Below, piece after piece: positions 1-18,115 of a stretch of 20,000 nt of DNA; within the stretch, counting starts at the first letter, position 1, and each line of letters opens with the position of its first letter. This DNA is from Catajapyx aquilonaris. Its lineage: Eukaryota. The notes under the pieces were generated by a model, which was not told the origin of the DNA, made no database searches, and saw only the letters and a program-made list of their open reading frames with translations. Location: positions 59,584 to 79,583 of the forward strand of contig JYFJ02001452.1 in assembly GCA_000934665.2 (NCBI GenBank), read 5' to 3'. The translations under genes were made by a program, and so were the position numbers.

Positions 1-438
1 CCTGATCCGGCGAGATTATCCTTTTCCATTTGTATCAGTTGAGACACTGAAGCAACTTGTCCAACACTATAATTATAACCTTCCTCTATATGTAGGTCTG
101 CGTGTAATTTTCTCCTTGCAAAAACATGTCAGACGCGCAATTTCCTTAAGCACACAAAACTCGCACACTGCCGTTGTCGCAGTTTAAAGGGGCAAAGAAA
201 CCGTCAACTCAAGCGTTGCTTCAATGTTCGTTCAAGTCTGACACGTCGACAAAGTGAAGGCCCAAAAGCAAACATTTTCCGCGCCCCCAAACGTCGAACT
301 TCTGTTATATACTGTATATAAAAATATATAGATATATATTCCTGTTGGTTTTCTCTCTCTCGGTTTTTTTTTTGTGATACACACTAACACTACTCTACCA
401 GTAAGAAATTACATGTTCTACCTCGAAAGTGCTTATAC

Positions 439-619
439 CTGGAAGCCATCATAAGTCCAGCTACCAAACTTCATGTCACAGCGCTGATCGTCAAAGGGGA
501 ACCACGTAATGTCTATCTTGCATGTGCTCTTGAAGATGCCCGGCGGAACGTACAAGCAGCTACCGTTATTTCTGACCACAACATTTGTGGGATAGGTCCC
601 GTCGAAACCCTCATCGGCA
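439..619 (-). CDS. nAChRalpha7: nAChR alpha7-like subunit, exon 5 ([61 protein letters not shown]; loop E, Cys-loop, loop B)
   Basis: Contains the Cys-loop [15 protein letters not shown] and loop B SWTYDG. Acceptor ctttcctgcaag|T completes the AG/T Ser codon from exon 4, and the donor is CAG|gtataa. It is 181 nt, phase 2 to 0. Confidence 0.97.
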
Positions 620-3251
620 CTTGCAGGAAAGGTGGGAAACAAGGGGTAAGTATAACGGTTTACTTTTTTTTTCTTTTTTGCACGGTTAGTAAACAGAACA
701 ACACAGACTGCCCTATAAATGCAGGGGTGGAATATTAGGTGAGAAAAGAAACAATTTACGTTCCACTATAAGAGAATAAGTGCACTACTCAACCGGAGGG
801 GGGATAAAGATTAAAAATGTCGACTTTTTTTAAAAGAACAGGACAGAAGAAAAAAAATGGCCAGTTTTATGTCAAGAAAAATCAACCCAGCCCCAGAAAA
901 ACTCAAAAGGTTGCACACCGAAGAAGAAAAATAGAAGAAAAAACGAGAGAGAACAGCTATCAAAAAATATAGAGATTTAAAAAAAATAGAGTTCAGAGGA
1001 AAATTGTGGACAAGAAAAAAAAAAACACCGAAGCAGCCAAAACCACGTATTGGGCTACACGATACGCAGTTCATGGGACTATCACCAGGCGACCATCACC
1101 CCACATGGAAACACAGGATTTGGTGAGTCCGCTGGGGAGTCACCTCCTGCGCCTCAACCGCTGTGTTTCCAGCAAGAGCGATTCTAACTTGGAAACATGG
1201 TGGCCCAACAACAACGGCATCTGGCCATCGTACATTGTCACCGGGCAGGTCACAAAAAGATCAGAGCCAAAAGTGAGTTTCCCCTTTACGCATGATATGA
1301 TATTGTATAAGATATGTGTACTGAACGAACTGCTGCACCAGACAGCTCGAGCTTCAGTTTTACCCCCGACTAGTTGGTTTGTTCGCCATGGGAGTTCGCT
1401 ATTTCCAACCCCATGACTCGCAAACCCTTCAGCTAATATTAGATATCACCTACTAAGGACAATAGTTTTAAAAGCAATATTTCTGCAAAATTATGTCTAA
1501 AAGTCTTGGGATAGGAAGAGAGTGTGAGCATTTCCTTTTTCTTTCTTTCTCTATGATTTATGGTGCCGCTCACAACGTCTGACTGGACAGTACTTGTACT
1601 GGGTGTCACTCCAGCTCTGTCCCAGCACAAATCAAACCACTTCCTCCACCTAACACTACTTACATTTGTCCTGACCAGTCCAGTAATTAATTGGTTCGGC
1701 GACATCAGACGTTACCTTTCTTTCGACCATCGGTTGCATATCCTTTCGTAACACAACTTCAGTTGCATCGGTCTCGAAATGAAACTGCAGGTGTGGAAAA
1801 CGATACAAACGAAACAAAAAAGGCGCAGTCGTTCACTCCAGCAAATGTGACACACTCAAAAAGGGTTTACTTTTACTCGCATTAAGCGGAGTAACAAATA
1901 CTCTACAAAGCAATCAGGAAACATTCGCTTGTAATTTGTACAGTGGGCGTCCCCAGTTAAATTCGAGTGTCTTTTGCACATGTGTCTGGACAATTAACAA
2001 ATCTTTGTACTCGCATATGTGGCAAAAAAAAACCTACTTGCGATACACCCTGTACTACTGGGCGCCAAACATGCATATCTTGTTTTGGTATCAGAAAAAA
2101 ATCCTATTCACCCTCCGCCAGTTCTCTCACACACTTTTTTTTCGCAGGGACGTCCAGAATTTGACGGTATCTGTACTTCGAGCGGAGATAAAACCCGGGT
2201 TCTCTGGCGCCCACAAACAAAAGGAGTCCGAAGGCCATTGTGTGGATTCACCGTTTGAATTAATCGCCATTGAACTGACACACACATAAAAGTAGTCTGG
2301 CGTTTTGACTTGGCCGTCGCATGTCTGTAAACTTTTTCCGAAAAACAATGGGGTTGTCCAGCGAGTGCATAATATGCGCCTGGGAAATAGAATAATCAAC
2401 AAAATAGTTTATAGGAAGACTACAACAAGTTGGTCGAAAGGAAAGAAACAGCACATCGGCCAGAGACATGTTCACACGTTCTCACCCATCGCACCTCCTC
2501 GCGTCCTCTTTCGCATACCATCTAAAACAAAGCATTACAACTAGACTAAGAGTAGGGAGGCTTACCTTTCCCATCACATATAACAAGACAGTTATATACC
2601 GAAGGCCATCAATATGTGGCCGAAATAGGAGGTGGCACACACGCAAGACAGGAGCGGCCAGGGGCAAAACTGAAGTCTGCCGAGTTGGAAGCCATAAGGC
2701 TACATACCAACAGTCCTTTGGCTACAACTTTTGGGCTCCCAATAAGCCTCGTCCCCTTCCACGGTGTCCCTTGTTGCTGGCTTGCCAACTGAACAACTGG
2801 CCACACTAAACTTTTCTTTTTTTTTGTAAGTAACTACACAGCAGGGGAAGGAAAATCATTGCTGAAACACAAAGTGTAACTGTTTTCTCTCGAATATTTA
2901 AAAAAATGGTATCTGTATAAAAAAAAAGAAATTGAGACGAACATAGTCGTAAAATTTATAGGGCAGAGTACAGGCTAAATAAATTTTAAGTATACTTTTC
3001 AAATCAAGTGAGCTACAATTTTGTCAGTTGAATTACGTTCAATGCATATTTATCAGGGGAGAGAAATGGTGCGGGTTAATTGTTGGACACTCCGCACTAT
3101 ATCTCCATCCTGTATTTACGTGTAACTGCGATGTCATTAGGCAGCCGTTCACAAAAATTCTGTTACGTCTTGCAGCTTCCTATTGTCATCGCGGATGCAA
3201 CTAAGATCACGTGATGAGAGACAACGGCACACGCATGCTTTTTGGCCATAC
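620..3251 (-). other. Intron 4 (about 2.6 kb), rich in inverted repeats
   Basis: gtatgg..aag borders, with multiple complementary segments (see findings). Confidence 0.88.
1073..1354 (-). promoter_or_regulatory. Putative editing-complementary sequence (ECS): degenerate inverted copy of exon 5
   Basis: Plus-strand 1193-1247 AAACATGGTGGCCCAACAACAACGGCATCTGGCCATCGTACATTGTCACCGGGCA aligns with exon 5 sense AAATGTTGTGGTCAGAAATAACGGTAGCTGCTTGTACGTTCCGCCGGGCA (586-537). Most differences are T>C or G>A, which are G-U wobbles in the pre-mRNA. Further colinear blocks flank this core. Confidence 0.75.
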
Positions 3252-3361
3252 CTGTTGTACATGAGCACATCGGGTTTCCAGATGCGATGCGGCGGTATCC
3301 TAAGATCCTTCACCCCACCATATTCAGACACGTTCCACCGGAGATTCACGTCGTTCCATTC
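3252..3361 (-). CDS. nAChRalpha7: nAChR alpha7-like subunit, exon 4 ([37 protein letters not shown], loop A)
   Basis: Contains the WKPDVLMYN loop A motif, and IPPHRIW is alpha7/alpha5-like. Acceptor accag|GAA, donor AACAG|gtatgg. It is 110 nt, phase 0 to 2, with branch-point-like AACTAAC at 3381-3387. Confidence 0.96.
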
Positions 3362-6300
3362 CTGGTCATAGATTCAGACAGTTAGTTAACAAATTCTGAT
3401 ACCCCGAGCACTCCTAGGACGCAATTGCCTCACTTCATCTTTCCATTTTTCAAAAAAATTATTAGCTCAAAGTTTGCTCCGTATTTATATTATTCCAGAG
3501 GCAAAGATTCCTGGAGCGCTGAACAACAACGACTACGAAAAGACATCCAGGATGCAAGAGTAATTATAAAATAACCGAGTGATAGATGTAACAAGTTAAT
3601 TGTAAAAACCGCGGCCAGACAGAAACGCACAAGGCGACAGAAAATAGCGACATCCATTTTCTCTGTGATTTGTGTGTTTGCAACCGCTTTTTGGTTATTA
3701 TATCTCCCCCGAAGATTGATGTGCAGTATACTTCAGTGCAACTGATACGATCCGTACCTTTCCGCATCTATAATGGAAACACACAACCCACAGAGGGCAA
3801 AAAACATAATAATCCCACAGACTGTAAAACAAAAAGGCCAGAAAAAAATATAGTAGCAAAATTTTTTCCATATACCGATCATTTTTTATATCACAAAAGT
3901 CACCCAGTTATAAAAACTAAATCTATCTAAAACACGTCAGGTCTACAGCTACACAAATCGTTTAGATGTGTTTTCAGTTTGTGAAATGTTTAAAAAGCAC
4001 ATGTATACAATGCAGTCTATATGCTAGTTAACATTTACCTCAGGCAATTGCTTTCAGCAATTGCTTGAATTACCCATTTACAAACAAAAACATCTTAAAA
4101 CAATCAACTCCGTTTGTAAAAGGTAATTTTGCTAGATGCCTACACAAAACCCCAAAATGCTTTTTGGTTGAAAAAACTCAAAAGTTAATGCAGTACTGCT
4201 TCCCTCACATTGTACCGCAAAACCAAAAAACAACAACGCGATAACTCAAAAATTTAAAAATAAACGAATGACCGGTTTTCGTCAGGCCCAAAAACTGATG
4301 AAAGCCACGGTAGAGAAAGAAAGCAAACTGCAACAGTCGCCTCCTCAGAACTGATCAGAAACCTAAATCAGAAACCGATACAGGCCTGTTTATGTAACAA
4401 TGCAATCCCTGACATTTTGCAGCCCGTTTTTTTTTTACTTGCCATCTGGAGAGTTGTAGTGCACTTTCCTCCTCTTCCAATGAGGATCAGTCTGTGGGCC
4501 GCCAAGTCTGTCTGCAAAAATTTCTTTTACTTCTAGAGCCACCAAAAAATTTGCAGAGCTCAAAGCCCACGTCCTTTTCTTTCTTTTTTTATTCTCCGGG
4601 AGTTTAAGTAATTGCTTTCTTTTGCAGGAAAAATGAATAAAAGAAACGGCGAGTATCAATATTGCCTCGGCTGTTCTTACTGTCAAATTCCCGAGAGATA
4701 CCGGGCAAATATCCTAGTTCCTTAGGTTCCTTTTAGTGGCTCCGCGTTCTGCACACTCCTTTACTCTCAAGGTACGAGTTTGTTCAATAATTTTAGAAGC
4801 AAGGAGCAACTTAGACTTGGTTTGCAGAATTTTGAAAAATGCGGATTGGAATGTGATTGTGCAGTCATCTAACATGATCTTACACTTACAACTACTACAC
4901 ATTGATACATTTAAAAACACAATTTTTTTAAACATTAGGTGTGGCGTACACAAAACTGTAAAAATGTTCATGTCTTTGTGAATCTGTCTAAAACCATGAT
5001 TTCATTTTTCCTTTTTTTGTCAAAATTCGGCAATATTCCTTCATTGGCTCTGGACAGCTTGGGTTGTGTGCATCGTTTTTTCTGTCTCTTTGTTTAATAT
5101 AGTCAGCACAACTCAATGTCTTTGGTTGTCGTTTATATGTATCGGGCAGTTAATCCCCATCGTCGTCGTTACAATAGCGACAAAAAAGGTAGCGTGAATA
5201 AAACGGGACTCTAAACTGCGCGTCAAATTGCAAATCGCGGTCGTCCTCGGCATATTTCCACAATTGCAACAATTTGCGATTCAAATAAGAGCCGTTTCAC
5301 CCACGACGGTCTCGGATTTAAAACTTCCCTTTCACTCGAGTAACTACCCCATTTTATAGATCAATTGCCCACTGAGAGCTAAAGGTGCATCGACGCCACT
5401 CTCAATGTCAATTAAATTCAGCTTTGGAGATCAGCCTTTTGCAATTTTCCCATTGATTACCGCCATTTTGAGTGTTATTACTTAAAAGGAGCTCGCTGCA
5501 TGCGGTTAGTCAACCTCCCTCTTTTTTTTTTATTCGCATAAAATCTACTGGATGTGCTTTAGTTTCCGTCCTGGTCGGTTAATCGAACACAAAAATAAAC
5601 ACTACGCTGGATGTCTTATCGAATTTTAGAGCTGTCAAGTCATATGGACCTTTTTTTAAAACTTTGAAATGATCCCGACAGCTACCTTCATGCTGTCGTG
5701 TCTTTTAAGGGACATTGCGTAGTTTAAGAATCAAGAGAATTTTCCAGTAGTTCGGGAGCCAGCCAACAGGCGGCTCGCGATAGACGCCAATAGCAGTCGC
5801 TTCACGTGGCCGTTAGTCGAACTACGCAGTGTCCCCCATTTTGGTTCCGTATTTTAAAATATCATCACTCCTTCTCCGTCCCGAGGAATGGAGTGAACAT
5901 TTTTTGGGGGAGGGTTTAAAAAATTTAAATAAACAAATAAATCCATGCAGCATTCGCTATATGATTCGCTTCCTTGTTTCGTGAGGAGGCTGAACCTATT
6001 TGTGTGTCGCCAAAATCTGTTGTTTTTTTTGCACAAGGGTCGAAATGTAGCATGCATATAACAAAACTGCTGACCCTTCTTTTCTCAGATTGAAATGCCA
6101 CAGGTTTATTGTTTATTATTCCAGCTCATTATTTTTTTTTTCCACGCTTGCCTGCCTACATGCACACTGGTTGCTTTTATTTTCTATGTGTAGATGCGTG
6201 TGTCGTCTGTCCCCGTGCAATAAATAGTACCAAGCCAATCCATACTATGGACCGAACAAAATTACTTCTAAGGTTGCCTCAGTTTTTAGAGGCTGAAAAA

Positions 6301-6683
6301 AATACAGTCTATACGATTGGTTGCAGGATGGGCTGGGTGGAAACTATCCCACCTGATGCCACCATGCAAATCACGATCGATTTGTTATTAGGCAGATGGA
6401 ACAGCGAAGAAACACAATGGGACAGTCCGTCCAGAACTTTAAATGAAGCTCTCTTCCTAACCTAATCGACAAAAATGAATGATCCAACTTTCTTTTTCAA
6501 AAAAATGCGCTGACAATTTGGAAACGCATGTGTGGTCCATGCGGCACTTCCATCGATCCCATTTAAAAAAATATTATGCGGTGTCGGTTTCACTGCGTCA
6601 AGACTGGTGTTTTGTGCATGTGCACAAGCCAAAAAGAGAGCTACGGTGCACTCGCTCTAAACCATCTTATGATGTGCAAGAGC

Positions 6684-6812
6684 AGATAGAGAAGAGAAGA
6701 GAAATAGAGAAAAAAGAGAGAGAATTGGCATCCCGCATTTCATTTTGGAGAGAACTGGGGGAAGGTTGGCCCCCCCAGAGCAAAAGGGAAGGAAGGAAGG
6801 AAGGAAGGGAAA
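6684..6812. repeat. Purine-rich low-complexity tract including a short (GGAA)n microsatellite
   Basis: GA-rich run at 6684-6723 and gggaaggaaggaaggaaggaagggaa at about 6786-6811. Confidence 0.6.
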
Positions 6813-8002
6813 TGGCACAAAGCAAACAAATGAGAAAGGCCTGGCCGCCTGCCAAATGAAAAGGTGGGGAGGGCAAGGGAAAAGGAGAGGGTTTCCTAGC
6901 TATAGCAAAAGCTATGAACGGAGCTATTCCTTGCCAAACCCTCGCGCAAAAATTCGATTCCCAAAACTACGGGGGCCTCCCACTAGAAAAATAAATAACG
7001 GAGAAAATTCTCACTGTGCCTTGTTTGTTGGAGAATCGTATAAATCAAGCGGCTGACGGGTGTGGTCTCGCATCAAAAATTGTGTAAGGATAGAAAGGTT
7101 AAGAAGTTTGGCAAACGAAATGTTCGCTGGAAATGTAAGTGAGAGTTGTACAAAACATGAGCGGAAAAAAATGAAAAAGATCCCCATTTTAACATGAAAG
7201 AAGCAGTAATTAATCCCACTTTGAAGTGCGGAATCATGCTTAATATAATTCCTTGGTTATTCGCAATCACGTCTTGCTATGTGGCTCCCCAGATAAGTTT
7301 TGGAAACACTTTTCTGTGGGGCCAACAAATACGCTGAGACAAGCTATTTCATTCGTTCCACGTGGGAAAGAACTTGGGGGAATTTATAATGCAAAGACTG
7401 TCACGTCCTGTGATTTATACGGACTGAGTTTCATACTTTGCATCGATAGGCTCCTGCACGAATTTTGCTATTCCGCAGGGATGCGACGGAAACAAGAAAA
7501 TGTCACACCGTATTAGGCTACAATGTAGCGAGAGAAATGACGATTCTATAACACAGCCACACTTTTTGTGGGATTAAATACTGAGGTGTTTTATTTCCAG
7601 CCCTTGTTTAGTCACAGATTATATGTGATACCCCCCCCCCCCCGCCCGCCAAAAATACCCAAAAACTTACGAATTGATGGCTAAATATATTTGAGACAAA
7701 TAAAGAAAGGCAATGGTGAGCTGTCGTCATGCAGATCCAATTCTCGAAATGACTAAATCTGCGTGAAGCTTTGTCAAACTCTGTATTCGGTTTGATTGTA
7801 AGTATAGTTTCAAGCTAGAGGATAAACAAAGTTGTGGAATGGTTTTCCGAAGCTAATCCCATGGACTTGCCATTCCGTGGAGGCTAGAGAGAACCATTCG
7901 GATGCAACGTGAGAAGCCTATGTTATCAAGCAGAACGTCCAGAGCTGAAGGAGAGAGTCAGTCCACAGACTATGCAGGATGGCTGGTACAGTATGTCGCG
8001 AG

Positions 8003-8055
8003 GCATGCTGGGGAATTGAGAATCAGAGATGCAAACATATTTGTTGGAGACCGAC
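8003..8055 (-). promoter_or_regulatory. Putative intronic element base-pairing with exon 3b and its splice sites
   Basis: Plus-strand GCATG...GAGAATCAG...GCAAACATATTTGTTGGAGACCGAC resembles exon 3b sense gcatg...AGAATCAG...ACAAACATGTGGTTAAGACTGgt, with wobble-type substitutions. Confidence 0.6.
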
Positions 8056-8158
8056 ACTGCCAAACAGCGAAGGCAACTCGATATATAGATATATATCTTT
8101 TTTTGGATATAAAATTCCTCTGATGTATATGAACTTTCTTGCTAGTGTGCTGACTTAC

Positions 8159-8203
8159 CAGTCTTAACCACATGTTTGTAATGAGAAGCTGATTCTTCTC
8201 ATC
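8159..8203 (-). CDS. nAChRalpha7: nAChR alpha7-like subunit, alternative exon 3b (DEKNQLLITNMWLRL, loop D)
   Basis: Minus strand reads ttttcattgcatgggatag|GAT GAG AAG AAT CAG CTT CTC ATT ACA AAC ATG TGG TTA AGA CTG|gtaagt. It is 45 nt, phase 0/0, with a branch-point-like AACTAAC at about 8237-8243. Confidence 0.93.
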
Positions 8204-8863
8204 CTATCCCATGCAATGAAAAGAAAATTTGGTGGTGTTAGTTTCTGCCTACGACACCCTGCTCAGGGTGCGTTTTTCTTGCGAACCTGAATTCTGGAGG
8301 AACACTCATAAAAACATAGACACACAGAACTAACTAATCAACACGGGTCCAGTCGTGAGCAAACCGACGGGTGAGCCAACTTTTATTGTTTTCCCCAGCG
8401 CCCTGTTATTACAGTGCTGACCGCAGGCTGCAGGATTGTTAGAGAGAGGGATCATATGATTAGCTTTAAAGTATGTAACCGACCGCTGGCCCACCGTCGG
8501 GGTGTTCACGTAATAGACGCCAACTCCAGAATTCAGTGTCGACCTCAAATGACGCTGCTGGACTGCCCGAGCCTGGCCCCCCAAAACGCCCGGTTGGTTG
8601 ACAAACAAAAGGATTTTCTCTCAACCCTTTATGGCCGAGCCCAACTCGTGTCAAAATGCCAGGCCTCACTCTCTATCAAATACAAGAGAGAAGAGATCCA
8701 GGGCTCCAGCCTCGTCATTTCGGAACCGGACTTTGCTTCCTCTGCTTGCTCTTTTTTAAAAGGCAAATCCTGCTCTGCCACCGGACAAAGTCAAAGTCGG
8801 AAGGTTCCCTTGCTGGAAAGGAAAGAGTTCACAGTTACAATGCACACTGTATACACAACTTAC
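8204..8863 (-). other. Intron between alternative exons 3a and 3b (660 nt), containing a long internal stem
   Basis: GT..AG borders, with nested inverted repeats 8287-8299/8524-8536 and 8364-8380/8485-8500. Confidence 0.85.
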
Positions 8864-8908
8864 CAAATTTAACCAGATGTTCGTGATAATGATTTGGTTC
8901 TTTTCATC
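8864..8908 (-). CDS. nAChRalpha7: nAChR alpha7-like subunit, alternative exon 3a (DEKNQIIITNIWLNL, loop D)
   Basis: Minus strand reads ctttttctctcctag|GAT GAA AAG AAC CAA ATC ATT ATC ACG AAC ATC TGG TTA AAT TTG|gtaagt. It is 45 nt, phase 0/0, and is not in the ORF track. Confidence 0.93.
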
Positions 8909-11900
8909 CTAGGAGAGAAAAAGATGGGCTGGCTTACACACATGATAGGTTATTCGATCATCACAAACTACTGGGAGGCGTTCACTTTCTAAAAGGAGTT
9001 CGTAAAAAAGTGGAGAAAAAGGTGAAAAAAAACCAAAAACATGTGCATCTCACAGTTTGAAAACTTGCAAAATCTCTGTCAACCAACTAAAAAGCCAAAA
9101 AACGTTGCCATTTCCTTCGCCAAAAAGTTGCAATTCTAAGTGTTGGTGCTTCCTCTTTCACGTTACTTGCAAAACACTCTACAAAACCAAAAAATTAAAA
9201 TAATATACAAAATAGGGGGGCCTACTAGTGCCTGATTCGCCGACAAAACACAAAAAATAAAAGGTTTGAAGCCAAATCAATAATCCGTTCAAGACTTACG
9301 TTACTGTACATACAGCTGTCACAACAAATGGTTGCGTGATGAAAGAGTCATATTTCAGTTGGGGAAAAAGGCTGCTGTAACATGGCGCCTGCAATTCACT
9401 CCTATTTCATGACCAATGCATTACACCCACCAATCGCGCGTTTAAACGCGACAGGAGATGTGGAGAGCTATCGCAAATGGAACAAAATGCCCTCCTGAAA
9501 AACGATACTGGAATACTACATCCCCCAAGTCGCCAGGGACTCTGCCCGTTGCCAACGTGTGAGAGAACACCCCTCAAAAAATATACAAAACGGCTGTCAC
9601 ACACAGACCAAATTAAAACCCATTCCTCATCTTCAGCTGCTTGTCAACCGTGAAACTTGATTGACATCGGCGACACAATTTACATAGATCTGACCTCTGA
9701 CAGAGCCGGAACGCAGGAAAACGCCAACGCTAATGCGTCGATTTAACTGCATATTAACCGAGCCTAGGGGCGGAATATTTTGTACCTCCCTTTTCTCTTT
9801 GCCCAAAAAAATACACGTCAGGTGCAAATGATCTTAATCTGCATACGTTTTTTGGGGGAATTCGAATCGATCCACACAAAATTTCTTGGTCCATTTTCAG
9901 ATTGTAGAAAGGGTGAAAGGCACCCTCTGCTCTCCAATCTAATAGGGTTGCACAATGCTGGAGATAAGGCAGGAACGCTAGTCGTCAAAAAATGTGCAAA
10001 CGGAAAGTTAAGCGCATAAATACTTCTGGAAAAGATATCCCCACTCCCCCTCCTCCCTCTTTTTTTTCCAGGCTAGATCTATGCCGGATTTTTCTTTTAG
10101 TTTTCCGCACTATCAGCCATCTTTCCTCATAAGAAGCGGCCTTACTCCGTCGGCGGGAAATTATAATCTTGATTTATGGTCGCGTACGATCCAACTTTCT
10201 GAAAATGTTTCTGCAATTTCTGGCCTAGCGCACTGCTAATATTCCCCTCCTCCATAGCATAGACCATAGAGCGTATAAAAATCCAGACCTTTTTACGGAT
10301 GTTGCCAGAAATAGACCACTGCTTGGCAACTCCATTCGGGAAGGGCACAAAAATGGTATTGATATGCATTGAAGTAATTAAGAGCGGTGTTTATGGAGAA
10401 AAGGGTGCAGCGATATATGGGCCTTTGGCAAATCCCTTTCGCCATAACTTTGTTGCCTTGATCTCGGCATGCAAAACCCTGAGCGATAGCTTTGGCTGCC
10501 TATCCTATCAATGCCGATGATGCTGCATAAACATTCCCTGCTTGAGCGAAATTGCCGTCATATCTGCTCAGTCACGGCGTCCTTTGCCAAAAAAAAAAGG
10601 AAAAAAGGAAGCAAGCCCACCCACAAAAGAGCCCTCGGTATGAAAGGGGGTGGAGCGACACTTTGATCGATTTCCATCAGCACTTGGAATATTGTGCAGT
10701 TATGCACGCATTTAGGCCATCATCCCTGAAAGACGCTGGAAAATTGGGCTGGCATAATGTATTTTTTCTGCATCTTAAGAGCACTGCAGTTTGGTCTATA
10801 ACATAGGTGAAAGTTTGCACAAGCTTTTATTCTAATTGAGACGATGTCTTTTCATGCGGCCGCTTTCAACTTCACGACCTATCAACAGAATATTATAGTG
10901 CAGCATCCAATATTCCGCGCAATTACACGTGTCACGAAGAAATGTATAATATACTGACAACGCGGCAACGTATCAGTCTCGGGAGGGTTGCATAACGGCC
11001 AGGATGAGTGCTCATTTTTGGCTAATTTTTTTTCCTTCAAAATCTCCATGCCAGTTAGCTAATTGGTCCATTCAGCCTGTTTCCTGCACATTTATCCGCT
11101 CCCATAGTTTTTCCCCAAAAAAGGCTCACATTTGTACTTTGGCCACCTTTTACACCCGATCTCCCGGGTAGTCCAAGCGAACAATGGGACAGCCCCCTGC
11201 CCCCCACCAATTACGAAACTACCGCTTTCAAAATCTGAGTACAAGCTGGTGCCAACGAACCGTATTCTCCACGTGGCCCTCCCCAGTCTGGATGTGTATA
11301 TACCTCGGGCTTAATTTGAGTGGTGGTTCTCCTCTGGGGAGCCCAATGGGAGGAAAACCTGGGGATGCTGCTGCCTGAATTAAGTCCCAAAAACGACAAC
11401 ATCGTCCCAGTGCATAGGGAGGGATCCATTCTGACCCCGGGGACTCTATATTAACTAGCCAAATGAACTCGGTGGGTGAGTTAAGCCGACTGGGTTGCGG
11501 GGACTGGAATAATCCGGGGACACCGCAGGCCCCCCCTAGTTTCCATCTACCGTTATATGCTCCAACCTAGGCATCTTTAGATCCGGAATTCGGGCCACGC
11601 CACTGATCCGGATAACAGGTCGCAAAACAAATCTGCGAGCGCCAATTTATGGCGGTTGTTTCGACGGAATTGAAACCGGATTTTCCATGTGATGTGGGCG
11701 GCTTGTAGTTTATCGCCTACTTGGGTGGGTGGGACTGGCTTGTTCCACTTGATAGTGGGATATGGCCGTTGCTGGCAACTAAACTACCATTCGCGGTCGC
11801 TCGTTAGACAAGGTGATCGGTTGGTAAACGGTCGGGAGCTACAGGAAATTCTGGAGCCCGTGTGTTTATCGCAGCGACGAGAAACGCGGTTTTGTGGAAA

Positions 11901-14900
11901 AGCGGGTTTGGGTACACAAAAGACGGAAGGTTCATCCATAGGGTTTTATCCCAAAGTAAACACTGTCGCGCTTGCAAGACGGTTATTTACAGCGACAAGA
12001 TTAAACGTGAAGGTGACTTGGGCTGGGAAAAAGGAATCAAGCCACTGCGACTTTTTGAGCTCTTGGAAGATTCGAGGATTACACTGTCAAAATACGGATG
12101 GGGTTGGCTCGACACCGCAACAAAGATTTAGAGCTCTGGAATCAATGCCTCCAGCACACTTGCTACGACCCTGTACTGTACAAAGATGGCAGCATGTTGT
12201 CAATAAAAATTGAAAAATTGAACATCAGAATTTATGCGCACCGCGAATTCTGCAGCCCTTAACATCAACTGCAGAATTATTATCACTTAGTTAACTGCCG
12301 ATCTGCACTCCTAACTGCCAGCTTGGCCAAGTACTTAGTATGTAAGAAGCCTTCCACGCGGGCAGCTTCCGGTTTGCAACGTCGGACATGTGAGTAAATC
12401 CAGGCTGAGGCGTAAATCTGTGCAATATTCCGGGCAGCCAGCACACTTAGGTCCTACTTTCCGCCGTCCTAACGCGATCTACACGCCCAGAATTTTGATG
12501 ACCCCCCCATGTATTTTTATATTTTTTTATACTTTGAAAGGCAACATTCCGCATACAAACCTGATGCGGATTATCAATAGGCGCAAAAACCTGAGTGCGG
12601 ACTGGTCGCGATGACAAAAGAATTATTTCCATTCCGAGCTGCCCAGTATCTTGCACAATTCCATGGCTCGTATAATAAGCCCCTTTTGCCTTATAAAGCC
12701 CCTCCAGGATGGGCATACGTCGCAGGGATAAGGGAGGGGACGGGGGGAGATAATCGCAACCTTATTTCCATTTTATCCGATTCGGCCGCGATACTGCATC
12801 TCAATGGCATCTTGCAAGCGACGGGAAGGTAGGACGTGAGTCGCTTGCAACTAGTTCTCATTTGGCTGCCATGGAGCCGGAGACTTTTTTTTTCAGCCGT
12901 TTCTCTTCTGGTCGCTTCCGCTGCTCTCCCGACAGAATAGCTCCAAAATGCCTCTGCTGCCAGCTTTCCTTTCAACTGGACCGGCATGAATGGCAATGGA
13001 GCTGCAGCTTCACGTTTTTTTAACACTACGCCATTCCAGGAAAACCTTCAGGCAAATGGGATTAGGCCGCAGTCTAACTTCCGCAGTCAATCCAAATGTG
13101 GTGTCAAAACTATGTAGTGACACAGAGCAAACCCAACTGATCGCATCAAGTCACATGTGGAATGTAGAACAAGCTTGAGCACGGGTTAAACGTGAACTAT
13201 ACAAAAATGATGATGTGCTTTTTCCAATATTCGATAGTGTTCAGTCAAGGGAGAAGCTGATAATTTAAAACGTGGTCATGTTGAAGAGACAGAGTGATAG
13301 AAGCCTGGATACTCCGTACTGCGGTAGTGAGTTACTGCAATATCTTTGCTGATTACAGGCTGCAACGCGGCACAGCCTTTTTTAATTACCAGACTTCACA
13401 CAGCATATTTTGGACGATAATGTAGCTTCATTAAGGTAAGCCATATCCAGTCATCTACTGTCCCCGGGCACTTGGCTACGGAATTTTTCATTGGCATATA
13501 GTGTACTTATATGCTAAAAATTAGCTTCGCAGTATAATTAATTGCCCAAGTCCACTCCCCAAGATTGAGGAAAAAGAAGATTACCCACTGCTTACTCCAG
13601 CAACTATTTTTCTTGAGACCGTGCAATAACTTTAATGCACAAAGGTAATCCAACTTTCCAGAACGCCCGTAATATAACCGAGACCAGGATTTTGAAACTG
13701 GGTGGGATAATTCTCAATGTGGGTCACATGCAGGGGGGGGGCTCCTATCCAAAAATTCCGAAGAGAAGTCATTGCCAGAGTTGTGCAGCGCAGTTTGAAT
13801 TTCATCAGGTCGCTGTCGGCAAAACCCTTCCCTCTGATTCTGGCCGATTGTCTGCTTCATCTCACTTCCATCCCGCAAATTGGAACAAATTCGCACTCCT
13901 CTGTATACCCGGAGAGGAACGTCGGCAAATAAAGTGAATGAGACAAGCTGTACGGCAGACCTCTGCAACCATCCACATTGGCATTCCGCACACCACATTT
14001 CAAACCTTCATTTTTTTTTTCTTCGCCCGAATTTCCTGCCCTAATTTCGGTCAAGACGCAATTAAGGCACTGGCGTGGCTTGAATTTAACGCTTTAAACC
14101 TCCCTAGCCATAATTATATACTAAGTTTTGTTGATCCAAATTTTCCGAGGATGTTTGCTCAGGAGTCTATGTAATTACCGAACCGCATCAGTATTCTTGC
14201 CCGACTTATTGGGTTTTCTTCGCTCATCCTTACAACAACCTTCCGCTATCTCCTCACTTCCGTTTTTAATTTCTTGCTCACACTTTTCTACGTTTTTTTT
14301 TCTTGGTATTTTGATCGTGGGAGGGGGAGGGTGCCATTACCACCGGAACAGCTTTCTCCATTAGACGCCTCATTTATAACTTCATCCCATTATAAACGAG
14401 AGCAGATAAGCGTTACATCCAAGCAATTTGGGAACCCGATCTTGCCAAAATTAATACACTAAGCTCGAATCTACCCCTGGCATATAGAACCGGGGGAATT
14501 TTTCTTCCTCCTTGCGAAAGTCGAAGACGTGACTAGAATGCAGTTCTGTAAATAATTAGTTGGCACGACAAGAGAACTATGTCCGCTTTGCCGTCTTGAA
14601 ACCTTAATAACGCCCTCTCAATATTGCATTCCAAGTCAGGCCGAGAGGGTATATTAAAACGCCACGGACCTTTTTTTCTCATACTCTTTTTCTTTCTCTC
14701 CAGCTGAAAACTGGACAGGAATTCGGGGAAAATGCCAGGCCCCCCTGTCCAGCAGTGTGTATAACCTAGATATGCCCCACACTATGAGAGATATTGCCCT
14801 TAAGGGTGGTCTTGTACTGACAAGACTGCGTAAATTGGGCCCAAAAGATGGAAGCACATGTCGCCTTCGCTCACTCCGCCATCTTCCACCCAGGCAGCTA

Positions 14901-17900
14901 ACTGATGCAATTTTGGACACTCCCAAGTGATGTCCGTGTTTTCTTTGGTGATTACAAGCCTGTAAACTACTGTAGGAAATGGCTAGCTGGCAGAGAGGTA
15001 TAACAATCTAGATTGGATGCCTGGGCAAACACATGACAAAAAGGTTGGGCTGCCAGGCAACGCTCACTCGTCCCCCTTTCCGATACCCGGATCATTACAC
15101 GGATACGGTTTAAAGCCCGTGCGGATTATTTATTCGCCGCTACATTGTGAAATGGAGCGTGAGAACGCACTGCTTGCCCACATGTTTAGATATCGCGAAT
15201 GATGGAGAGTTCATAAATCGAGGTAATAATGAGGTCTGCCGGAAGACTAAAGAGCAGGTGGGCGCGTTCATACACAGCCTCCTGTCACCGCAATGTTTCA
15301 TGCGGCACGATTGGTGATCTCAGCAAATTGAAAATAGCGCAATGTTTTTTCTCCGTCCTTAATAGATTCGCTGCTAGCTACCGTTTGAAATACGTTCCCA
15401 TCTAGAGCTTGCAAATATCCGGCTCTCAGATAATACGAATAATTAAACTGTAAGTGGATTACTCTCCCTGATCCAGTGAGTCAAAAAGTAAGACTCTTTG
15501 CATGTCAGCAAAATCTCTGACTTTTGAACGTGACCATTTTAATCTCTTGAAATGCAAGGAGATGGATACTATCACGTTCGACGGTGTCTCTTCCGCTCTG
15601 GGACCGTCAGAAGAAAATCAGAAATATCTCTGGAGGAAATGGCGGAAAAAAAGAGGAAATCTCCTCTCGACCTCTTCAAGCCCTTCTCCTTACCCTTTTT
15701 TTCCCCTCCCTCCTCAACCCTGGTCCCTTCCATCTCCGCCCATTTCCTATTCACAAGGGAGTCCATCCCTATGGCGAACCAATTGCGATTTTTGCTAGCG
15801 GAAGAGATACGCAGCGGTCTGATAGCATCCTTGATGAACCTGCATGATCCCATCGGAAATGTAAGGTCAGTCCTCTCCTTTTTTTATCCTAATGCACCGG
15901 ATTGTACCAAACAACGAGCAGTCCTCAGAACAACAACGAACCAAATACAATTAGAGCCAAAGAGCCCACTAACAAGTTGCAAATAGGTTTCCTCCTCTGC
16001 CTGTGAATCCATTCGTAACGGTTAGCAACCGGTAAAGTGTATCCAAATATTCCTCCTGTTTACCCACCTTAATCATCCCAATCAGCTGGAGGGAGAAACT
16101 TTCAGCCCAAGTTTCTCATCTAATAACACATTTTTGGGGGTGAAATCTAAGCGAAAGTCGCTAGTGAATAAGCAGTGGATTCCAACTCTGTAATTACGCG
16201 CCCAAATTAATTTCGCAGCAGGATCTCCCGAAATTAGGTCCAATCAATTGCCTGCTGATGCCAGTTGATTCTACACAATGGTTTTCCCCAGAAGCACTTG
16301 CATGATATGATTGTGAATTATTTTGAGCTGGTTTTCACTACATAAGATAATTAACGCAATAATTACTCCATCAATATGAAAACAATTGAATCAAATGAAA
16401 GAGTAGCAAATAACTCAAAAAGTATTTTGGAAAGCAAGTTTTATGCAAACGGTGTCACTGGTATATTACAGTAATTTTAGGGGCAAATTTCCAGCAGAAG
16501 GCAAACAGACAGCAGCTCTTCGCAACTTTTTGTTGACACTCCGCCATCGCCCTCCTCGGAACGTCTCGCGTGTTGACATGCCCTGGCAAAAAGGCTTCCT
16601 ACCTGTTGATTTTTTTTTCCTTGCCATTTTTCTCTCCGGAAGTTCCCATATTGCCTGCATTTTCCGTCTCCCCCCCCCAAAAAAAAGGAGGGTATTCCCA
16701 TTTGCATGACAGGAAGGGTTCCCTCCGAGTGCCACCTCCCCTCGGCCACCAAAGTGTCATTGTGCTGATGGCTCGTAAATTCCGACTCTGACTGTTAACT
16801 TTACGACCTCTTAGAAAGATCCCCCCCTTGGGCCATGAATCTTTCAATCTCCAGTTGGAAAAGGATTTGGGCGCCAGGGGTTAGGACCAGAGGACGAATT
16901 ATCATTGTCAGACTTGCGCAAACTCCATTTGGATTTTTTTTCATGGCCGATCCTAACCTAATGCGGGTTAACGAACCCTCTTAAATTATTGTAGGGTCCA
17001 GCTTTAAATCGTGTGCCGTGTTCTTTGCTCCAATTTCTCGCCCGGCTTGCTTCAAGAACAGCTCAAGTGCCGGCAGTTGTCAAGTCCTCCGCCTAATCAA
17101 ACTCTGGGGGATGTTCTTAAGCTGAGCACTTTCATGCCGCTCTGACTCTGTCACTTTGTTTTAGGCGACTCGTGACGAAAATGGGGGCCGACGGATGCCG
17201 GCGCATACGGATGTGAGGCACATATCGAGCGTTATCTGACACTGCAGCTGTTTCTCTCGAGGACACTCAATTTTCACGGGCGCAGTAATCACGCTCACTC
17301 AAAATAATAAAAATAAAAAATACAACAGCCTTGTTTTCCCCAACCATTCTTCTGAACATTACCACATAACAGACACCAAAAAACACCTCTCCTAATCCAA
17401 CAAACTACTAGGGGGGGGCGAATAAAATTGCTCATTATTACATTGCCGTCCCCATGCATGTCATGGCCGTGTCATATTTTCCATTTCGACTGTTGATCAG
17501 GTAATTTGCCCAAACTAACACTATTTGTAGCTTTAGACATTTACGTAGCGGTCAATTAAATTGTGGTTTTGGGTTCTGGCAAACGAACCAGCTGTGCATC
17601 GACGTGATTGTTTTGCCACGACTGTCACCGGAGTTAACAAATGGGGTTTAAGCAATTTTATTCAAACAATTTCAAACGGTATTCGATATATGCCGAGTTC
17701 CTCCTGCTTGCTTTTGTGACCGAAATAAGTGCTTGTTTCAGGATGGTATTTATTTATTTCTAGAGGTTAATTATTATTGGTTTCATTGTTGAACCGCTCC
17801 TGAAGCGCTCACTCGATTCGAGTCACAACATTTTTGTCTACTGCTACTCGTGCACTTGGAGGAACCCTTGTTGGTAAATGGAAAGTGCTTGCAGCAATAA

Positions 17901-17975
17901 TAAAAGACTGTTTTAGTAGGACAAAAATGGGGGGCCAAAAGCTGAGGGGGTTCGGGCCAGGAGGGAACTACTTAC
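8909..17975 (-). other. Intron 2 (about 9.1 kb, exon 2 to exon 3a)
   Basis: GT..AG borders are defined by the flanking exons. No recognisable coding or transposon homology was seen inside. Confidence 0.85.
8957..8974 (-). promoter_or_regulatory. Putative intronic element base-pairing with exon 3a
   Basis: Plus-strand ATCATCACAAACTACTGG vs exon 3a sense ATTATCACGAACATCTGG gives 14 Watson-Crick pairs, 2 G-U pairs and a 2x2 internal loop. Confidence 0.55.
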
Positions 17976-18115
17976 AACATCAATGATCTGCATGAGGGTG
18001 AGGCCGAAGCTGAGCTGAAGAGGGTCTGATTCGTTGGCAACTGGTCGTTCCAGAACGTTATATCTGTCCAGGAGTGTGTGAAGCAGCCGTTTCTCGTGCG
18101 GACCTTGAAGGGACC
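17976..18115 (-). CDS. nAChRalpha7: nAChR alpha7-like subunit, exon 2 (xG-SLQGPHEKRLLHTLLDRYNVLERPVANESDPLQLSFGLTLMQIIDV)
   Basis: Translation matches the N-terminal helix of insect alpha5/6/7 subunits, and DPLQLSFGLTLMQIIDV is the alpha5/alpha7 type. Acceptor tatttccag|GG, donor GTT|gtaagt. It is 140 nt, phase 1 to 0, the same length as CHRNA7 exon 2. Confidence 0.96.

Follow-up and report, generated by a model that had tools for sequence, protein, structure and literature searches.

A probable inherited tandem pair of alternative exons 3 in an alpha7-type nAChR gene

The window, i.e., the whole 20,000-nucleotide (20-kb) stretch of Catajapyx aquilonaris DNA analysed here, very probably contains the 5' part of an alpha7-type nAChR gene with inherited tandem alternative exons 3, of which the transcript takes either 3a or 3b. 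In the mechanism we propose, one or the other exon would be placed between exons 2 and 4 to give two subunit isoforms, which would be the same outside 15 residues of the beta2 strand, in loop D, the complementary face of the agonist pocket. The a/b pair would have arisen once, before the alpha6 and alpha7 genes separated, and would have been kept in alpha6 and in many hemimetabolous alpha7 genes. The pair is already known from public alpha7 gene models; new here is one further species with the pair, real and expressed. The flanking exons 2, 4 and 5 are also present in the window, on the minus strand, and the gene is laid out as follows.

17976-18115, minus strand: exon 2, 140 nt, ending GPHEKRLLHTLLDRYNVLERPVANESDPLQLSFGLTLMQIIDV in phase 0, followed by GTAAGT; RNA joints from 8202 and 8905 to 17975; PF02931 positions 1-40
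8909-17975, minus strand: intron between exon 2 and exon 3a, 9067 nt, spliced out in an X5 RNA contig (joint 8905->17975)
8864-8908, minus strand: alternative exon 3a, 45 nt, DEKNQIIITNIWLNL; AG acceptor with a strong polypyrimidine tract, GTAAGT donor
8204-8863, minus strand: intron between 3a and 3b, 660 nt, U2-type GT..AG; nested inverted repeats at 8282-8299/8524-8541 and 8354-8370/8494-8510
8159-8203, minus strand: alternative exon 3b, 45 nt, DEKNQLLITNMWLRL; AG acceptor with a weaker tract, GTAAGT donor
3362-8158, minus strand: intron between exon 3b and exon 4, 4797 nt; joint 3360->8158, CT..AC ends on the plus strand
3252-3361, minus strand: exon 4, 110 nt; joint 619->3252; PF02931 positions 56-91
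439-619, minus strand: exon 5, 181 nt; PF02931 positions 94-151

Exons 2, 4 and 5 match the Pfam profile of the Cys-loop ligand-binding domain (PF02931) with 30.4, 44 and 74.5 bits, respectively, all above its curated cut-off of 26 bits. The profile is covered from 1 to 40, from 56 to 91 and from 94 to 151, and the 15-position gap between the matches to exons 2 and 4 has the length of one exon 3, so that the domain expects exactly one copy. The Rfam search gave no match, and Tandem Repeats Finder returned one irrelevant row.

The sequence-only reading had placed here two intact 45-nt, phase-0 exons 3 with strong splice sites, 660 nt apart, and its coordinates proved exact, with the gene on the minus strand. 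Both exons have an intact reading frame and are preceded by AG and followed by GTAAGT, the polypyrimidine tract of 3a being the stronger of the two. They are the sole exon-3-like copies detected by a six-frame motif scan of all 20 kb, and they share their strand with exons 2, 4 and 5. The two copies agree at 32 of 45 nucleotides and 11 of 15 residues. By codon (n = 15), 5 are identical, 6 differ synonymously, and 4 change the residue, at exon positions 6, 7, 11 and 14.

A search for sequencing runs returned four DNA runs of possible source origin, an RNA metatranscriptome (X5) and a small run of the same organism label (X6). We compared three runs with all 20 kb: X5, X6 and X1 (DNA). X5 depth is confined to 11 of 30 window bins, and all exons lie inside those bins. 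The joints recovered in X5 are the following, each with GT..AG on the minus strand.

619->3252: exon 5 to exon 4, X5 depth 142.1
3360->8158: exon 4 to exon 3b, X5 depth 55.8
3360->8863: exon 4 to exon 3a, X5 depth 61
8202->17975: exon 3b to exon 2, X5 depth 58.2
8905->17975: exon 3a to exon 2, X5 depth 83.3

The four joints involving exon 3 are all absent from the DNA run X1; being found in X5 RNA and not in DNA, they show that both single-inclusion forms exist as RNA. Thus, 3a and 3b are each singly spliced between exons 2 and 4, and both exons that had been read from sequence are joined to their neighbours in X5 contigs. Neither a 3a-3b joint nor an exon 2-exon 4 joint occurs among the X5 contigs, an uninformative result since assembled contigs lose rare forms; as assembled contigs, they carry no isoform ratios and are compatible with transcripts that hold both exons or neither. 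Relative to the window, X5 shows six synonymous differences in exon 4, two synonymous differences and one R>K change in exon 2, and one synonymous difference in 3a. Given these several, mostly synonymous mismatches, the splicing evidence may come from a close relative rather than from the same strain. Elsewhere in the window, a 1164-nt X5 RNA contig matches intronic positions 4115-5070 piecewise, the pieces being separated by five non-canonical skips (113-187 nt); the contig probably represents a repeat or comes from another organism and is not a transcript of the locus.

These RNA data bear on an alternative that we regard as improbable, namely that one copy, most likely 3a, is decaying or merely tolerated without a distinct function, its inclusion being splicing noise. 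Three residues of 3a are non-canonical in an exon otherwise invariant between Orthoptera and dipteran alpha6, and excerpts of PMC13578988 report that a tick alpha6 form containing 3a and 3b together is non-functional in oocytes. However, the frame of 3a is intact, its donor is consensus, and its polypyrimidine tract is the better one; RNA contigs follow both the 3a and the 3b path, and the sole difference of 3a in the RNA run is synonymous. The three replacements themselves (Thr>Ile, Ala>Ile and Leu>Ile) leave the strand hydrophobic.

The two exon types are widespread among related genes. Of 67 alpha7-type rows, 54 have b alone, 8 have a alone, 4 have a followed by b, and the last one, from a springtail, is a b-like variant. 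The b exon reads LLITNIWLKL in 47 of the 54 (the remainder being two close variants), and the a exon of the eight rows reads I[LV]TTN[AS]WLNL and relatives. The 116 alpha6-type rows divide into 51 of a type (DEKNQILTTNAWLNL in 50), 61 of b type (LLITN[IL]WLSL and variants) and 4 with both. Set against these rows, the window's 3a (core peptide IIITNIWLNL) does end in WLNL like alpha6 3a, and its 3b (LLITNMWLRL) does resemble the usual alpha7 exon 3, as the earlier reading had it. That reading had also held such a pair to be untypical of alpha7, a view contradicted by a-type exons found in an alpha7 context, as models or fragments, in 11 species (Schistocerca, Cryptotermes, Rhodnius, Macrosteles, Homalodisca, Lycorma, Halyomorpha, Cacopsylla, Cyamophila, Neocloeon and Timema), and by a tandem pair at metagenome locus L021, where exon 4 is alpha7-type. 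We take the 11 species to represent five orders, all hemimetabolous; 6 of the 11 have the a/b pair as separate or combined forms. The dipteran alpha7-type rows that cover exon 3, which are predicted proteins, are of b type only. L021 is among 9 loci with a spliceable tandem exon-3 pair in a set of 80 metagenome loci retrieved with exon 5. Throughout the tandem pairs and double-inclusion models (18 of 18, window included), residue 6 is Ile in the upstream and Leu in the downstream copy, and residue 14 of the upstream copy is Asn. At the metagenome loci L030-L032, L035, L038, L053, L067 and L068, which are invertebrate alpha6/alpha7-like genes, the tandem exon-3 pairs follow the same Ile/Leu rule at residue 6, and Asn14 is found in both copies.

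Judged by these rows and loci, the pair is not special to the Catajapyx lineage, but inherited and common in alpha7 of non-holometabolous insects. The sequence-only reading had offered either an origin before the alpha6/alpha7 split with retention in this lineage, or convergence; the former origin gains from the presence of a and b types in both genes, and the notion of a retention peculiar to this lineage does not hold. As a and b types are common to alpha6 and many alpha7 genes, a single duplication most likely predates the alpha6/alpha7 split and would have been followed by later losses.

The opposing explanation, which we consider slightly less probable again than the decay of one copy, is that the pair originated within the lineage, or was re-formed there through gene conversion, its likeness to alpha6 being convergence under the same functional constraint. 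It can appeal to the intermediate character of 3a, which is equally distant (3 residues) from canonical a and canonical b and carries Ile at positions 7, 8 and 11, Ile8 and Ile11 being b-like. It can also appeal to the excess of change in the exon copies, which differ from the canonical a and b exons (as in Cryptotermes) at 5 of 30 residues, against 3 changes among the 143 constitutive residues (Fisher p = 0.0044, a comparison chosen post hoc). Recent copying between 3a and 3b is, however, contradicted by their codons: among the 10 same-residue codons with synonymous alternatives, 6 differ, codons 8 and 9 among them. The likeness fades a few bases past the exons (a 54-nt direct repeat of 76% identity), and this ending of similarity near the splice sites indicates that the duplication is old. 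Moreover, the a-then-b order, Ile6/Leu6 and Asn14 agree with 17 of 17 other pairs, and the nearest relatives, Cryptotermes and Schistocerca, already have both types in alpha7. With 3a this far from both canonical types, its assignment to the a type depends on position, Ile6 and Asn14; common descent of the pair remains the reading we prefer.

As to which gene carries the pair, NCBI automatic names label alpha6 and alpha7 orthologs alike 'alpha-7' and cannot by themselves separate the genes; we therefore added alpha6-type representatives and author-named alpha6 sequences (Drosophila, Musca, Lucilia, Bactrocera, Stomoxys and Tribolium) for comparison. Searches with exons 5 and 2 returned insect proteins of up to 98% identity, including cloned Periplaneta alpha7 and Locusta "alpha7 variant B". 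Identity was measured over the constitutive exons 2, 4 and 5 (143 residues), leaving exon 3 out, with the following results for the window.

Zootermopsis and Cryptotermes alpha7-like: 140/143
Schistocerca and Anabrus: 139/143
cloned Periplaneta alpha7: 137/143
dipteran alpha7-type: 128-130/143
alpha6 rows: 117-121/143

In a 49-row tree (143 columns), the window groups inside an alpha7-type clade of 29 rows (support 88/91, not starred), separate from the two alpha6 groups; alpha6 is not recovered as a single clade in the unconstrained tree. Exons 2, 4 (IPPHRIW) and 5 (DDQRC, DGFQ) of the window carry motifs of the alpha7 type, and the 116 alpha6-type rows have ITPNKL/ITPSKL. In addition, the DNA run X1 contains a second exon 5 copy with alpha6-like P>H and V>I changes, from which a separate alpha6-type gene appears to be present in the genome. 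By these comparisons the gene is alpha7-type and not alpha6, in line with the alpha7-like character that had been assigned to its flanking exons. By identity it would stand nearest to genes of termites, cockroaches and Orthoptera, and its host was called a hemimetabolous-grade insect. That the gene is instead an alpha6 ortholog, with the pair as a routine alpha6 feature, strikes us as very unlikely: a tree uniting the window and the alpha6 rows was not rejected by the AU test (p = 0.113 on a short alignment of 143 columns) and automatic 'alpha-7' names cover both orthologs, but the window is closer to alpha7-type sequences (137-140/143, cloned Periplaneta alpha7 included) than to author-named alpha6 (117-121/143), its motifs in exons 2, 4 and 5 are alpha7-type, and the same DNA run holds a distinct alpha6-like exon 5. 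The exons for the adjacent loop-C cysteines and the transmembrane helices, as well as any neighbouring genes, fall beyond the 20 kb; excerpts of PMC12309072 describe linkage of the alpha7 and beta1 genes.

The source cited for exons 3a and 3b of insect alpha6 is reportedly Grauso et al. 2002. The alpha6 exons, described as mutually exclusive in the available parts of PMC1919356 and PMC2064938, share with the window the arrangement of two tandem 45-nt, phase-0 exons with the same exon 2 and exon 4 borders, a upstream and b downstream. In both cases double inclusion is in frame, and in alpha6 it is seen occasionally. In Schistocerca and Cryptotermes, the a exon of alpha7 has exactly the sequence of alpha6 3a. 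In contrast to alpha6, the host gene of the window is the alpha7 paralog, its 3a has Ile at 7, 8 and 11, and position 14 of the alpha7 b exon is basic (K; R in the window) where alpha6 b has S. The predicted alpha7-like isoforms of hemimetabolous insects, a comparison set of automatic models or fragments, belong to the gene type found here and share its a/b alternation at exon 3, and their constitutive exons are 91-98% identical to the window; their exons 3 are canonical, whereas those of the window are IIITNIWLNL and LLITNMWLRL. Outside insects, alpha6 of Ixodes ricinus, according to excerpts of PMC13578988, has two exon-3 versions in a gene of the alpha6/alpha7 group, which points to a great age of the pair, but it occurs as the combined 3a+3b form or with 3b alone, with no clean either/or. 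Tandem alternative exons that alter residues near loop D are also described for RDL (3a/3b/3c) and GluCl exon 3 in the portions of PMC2064938 and PMC12309072 seen, though these are anion channel families with other exon lengths and independent duplications. An excerpt of PMC4647701 notes alternative splicing in alpha7 of some insects and states no more detail. Our literature searches, including searches for the exon-3 peptides in text, found no paper describing the alpha7 3a/3b pair, which may nevertheless be in print.

Several mechanisms by which 3a and 3b could be kept exclusive can be set aside. Steric hindrance is ruled out by the 660-nt intron between the exons, and U12/U2 incompatibility by the GT-AG borders and GTAAGT donors of both. 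NMD is likewise ruled out, as had been pointed out from the sequence, since with 45-nt exons both double inclusion and double skipping stay in frame. Searches for docking-site/selector pairing gave nothing above shuffles. The inverted repeats around the exons are either short, AU-rich ones or ones located within the middle intron. Folding of this 660-nt intron has a marginal advantage over shuffled sequence (z = -2.21, 20 shuffles), and duplex energies between the exon 2/exon 4 flanks and the four exon-3 flanks are no better than those of shuffles (z from -1.5 to +2.1, a crude measure obtained by folding whole segments of 300-500 nt). None of the 80 retrieved loci is a close relative with the exon-3 region. 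Protein factors that regulate the choice of splice site, a mechanism discussed for alpha6, probably account for exclusivity. Double inclusion does occur elsewhere: excerpts of PMC1919356 report it for Bombyx alpha6, and a+b double-inclusion models exist in alpha7 of Rhodnius, Lycorma and Halyomorpha. The nested inverted repeats at 8282-8541 (one of 18 nt with 89% complementarity, the other of 17 nt with 82%) would allow a long hairpin in the middle of the intron and could be a small inverted-repeat element.

Through loop D, the choice between the exons would reach the ligand pocket. Aligned to the solved structure of human alpha7, exon-3 residue 12 corresponds to W77 and residue 14 to Q79 (precursor numbering), and the residue at the Q79-aligned position is Asn in 3a and Arg in 3b. 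Neonicotinoid action is known to be favoured by a basic side chain here, so isoform choice is predicted to tune both agonist and insecticide pharmacology. The parts of PMC10906874 available to us place loop D in exon 3 of beta1, describe resistance to neonicotinoids caused by mutations of the beta1 loop-D arginine, and report that the imidacloprid sensitivity of chicken alpha7 is raised by Q79R and nearly abolished by Q79E.

Exon 5 shows further transcript variation. At positions 570 and 566 (minus strand), the transcript carries A>G changes, N>D and N>S, which turn RNNGSC into RDSGSC with loss of the NGS sequon. At these positions G accounts for 148.8/148.8 in X5 and 3.19/3.19 in X6 (RNA), and for 0/53.7 in the DNA run X1, where the base is A; the X6 contig at these positions is the alpha6-like paralog copy, and X5 may be another strain. 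The two positions are candidate A-to-I editing sites. The cloned alpha7 cDNA of Periplaneta (P0137) reads RDSGSC, and the genome-predicted Periplaneta isoform (P0056) and 134 other rows read RNNGSC. Editing at the exon 5 NGS sequon is described for alpha6 in the excerpts of PMC2064938; our literature search found no description of it at this sequon in alpha7, and near exon 5 we found no editing-complementary hairpin or pairing partner.

Other copies of these exons are present in the sequencing runs. An alpha6-like paralog copy of exon 5 (window 436-621), with 8 differences in 88 nt and 6 in 110 nt, occurs on separate full-depth X1 DNA contigs and also in RNA. A 5785-nt X1 DNA contig has exon-3b-, exon-4- and exon-5-like pieces joined without introns (436-621, 3249-3268 and 8153-8205; joints 622->3249 and 3268->8153), which suggests a paralog that lost these introns or a retrocopy. 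Farther along the gene, the alpha7-type model of Timema (P0026) strings together four different TM2 pore-helix segments and two versions of the preceding exon. From these multiple TM2 segments, hemimetabolous alpha7-type genes may also possess an alternative cluster like the exon 8 cluster known from alpha6.

Taken jointly, these features admit a broader reading that, in our estimate, could equally well prove right or wrong. The exon 3a/3b pair, the TM2 exon cluster and the A-to-I editing that removes the NGS sequon would be ancestral to the alpha6/alpha7 clade and persist in hemimetabolous alpha7, flies having been secondarily simplified. The loop-D exons of the present lineage would have evolved about 8 times faster than the rest of the domain, giving an Asn/Arg switch at a neonicotinoid-contacting residue.

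The subunits alpha6 and alpha7 are of interest both as targets of insecticides and as models of neuronal receptors, and the alternative exon 3 of alpha6 matters for spinosad resistance. For the window itself, the practical value lies in the annotation, which is correct with two isoforms and not with one exon and a missed one. If it is true that most non-holometabolous alpha7 genes switch loop D between a neutral and a basic form, cloned "alpha7" cDNAs would stand for a single pharmacological form among several, both exons should be genotyped in surveys of the target site, and the history of alpha6 and alpha7 would be one of loss in flies, not of gain in alpha6.
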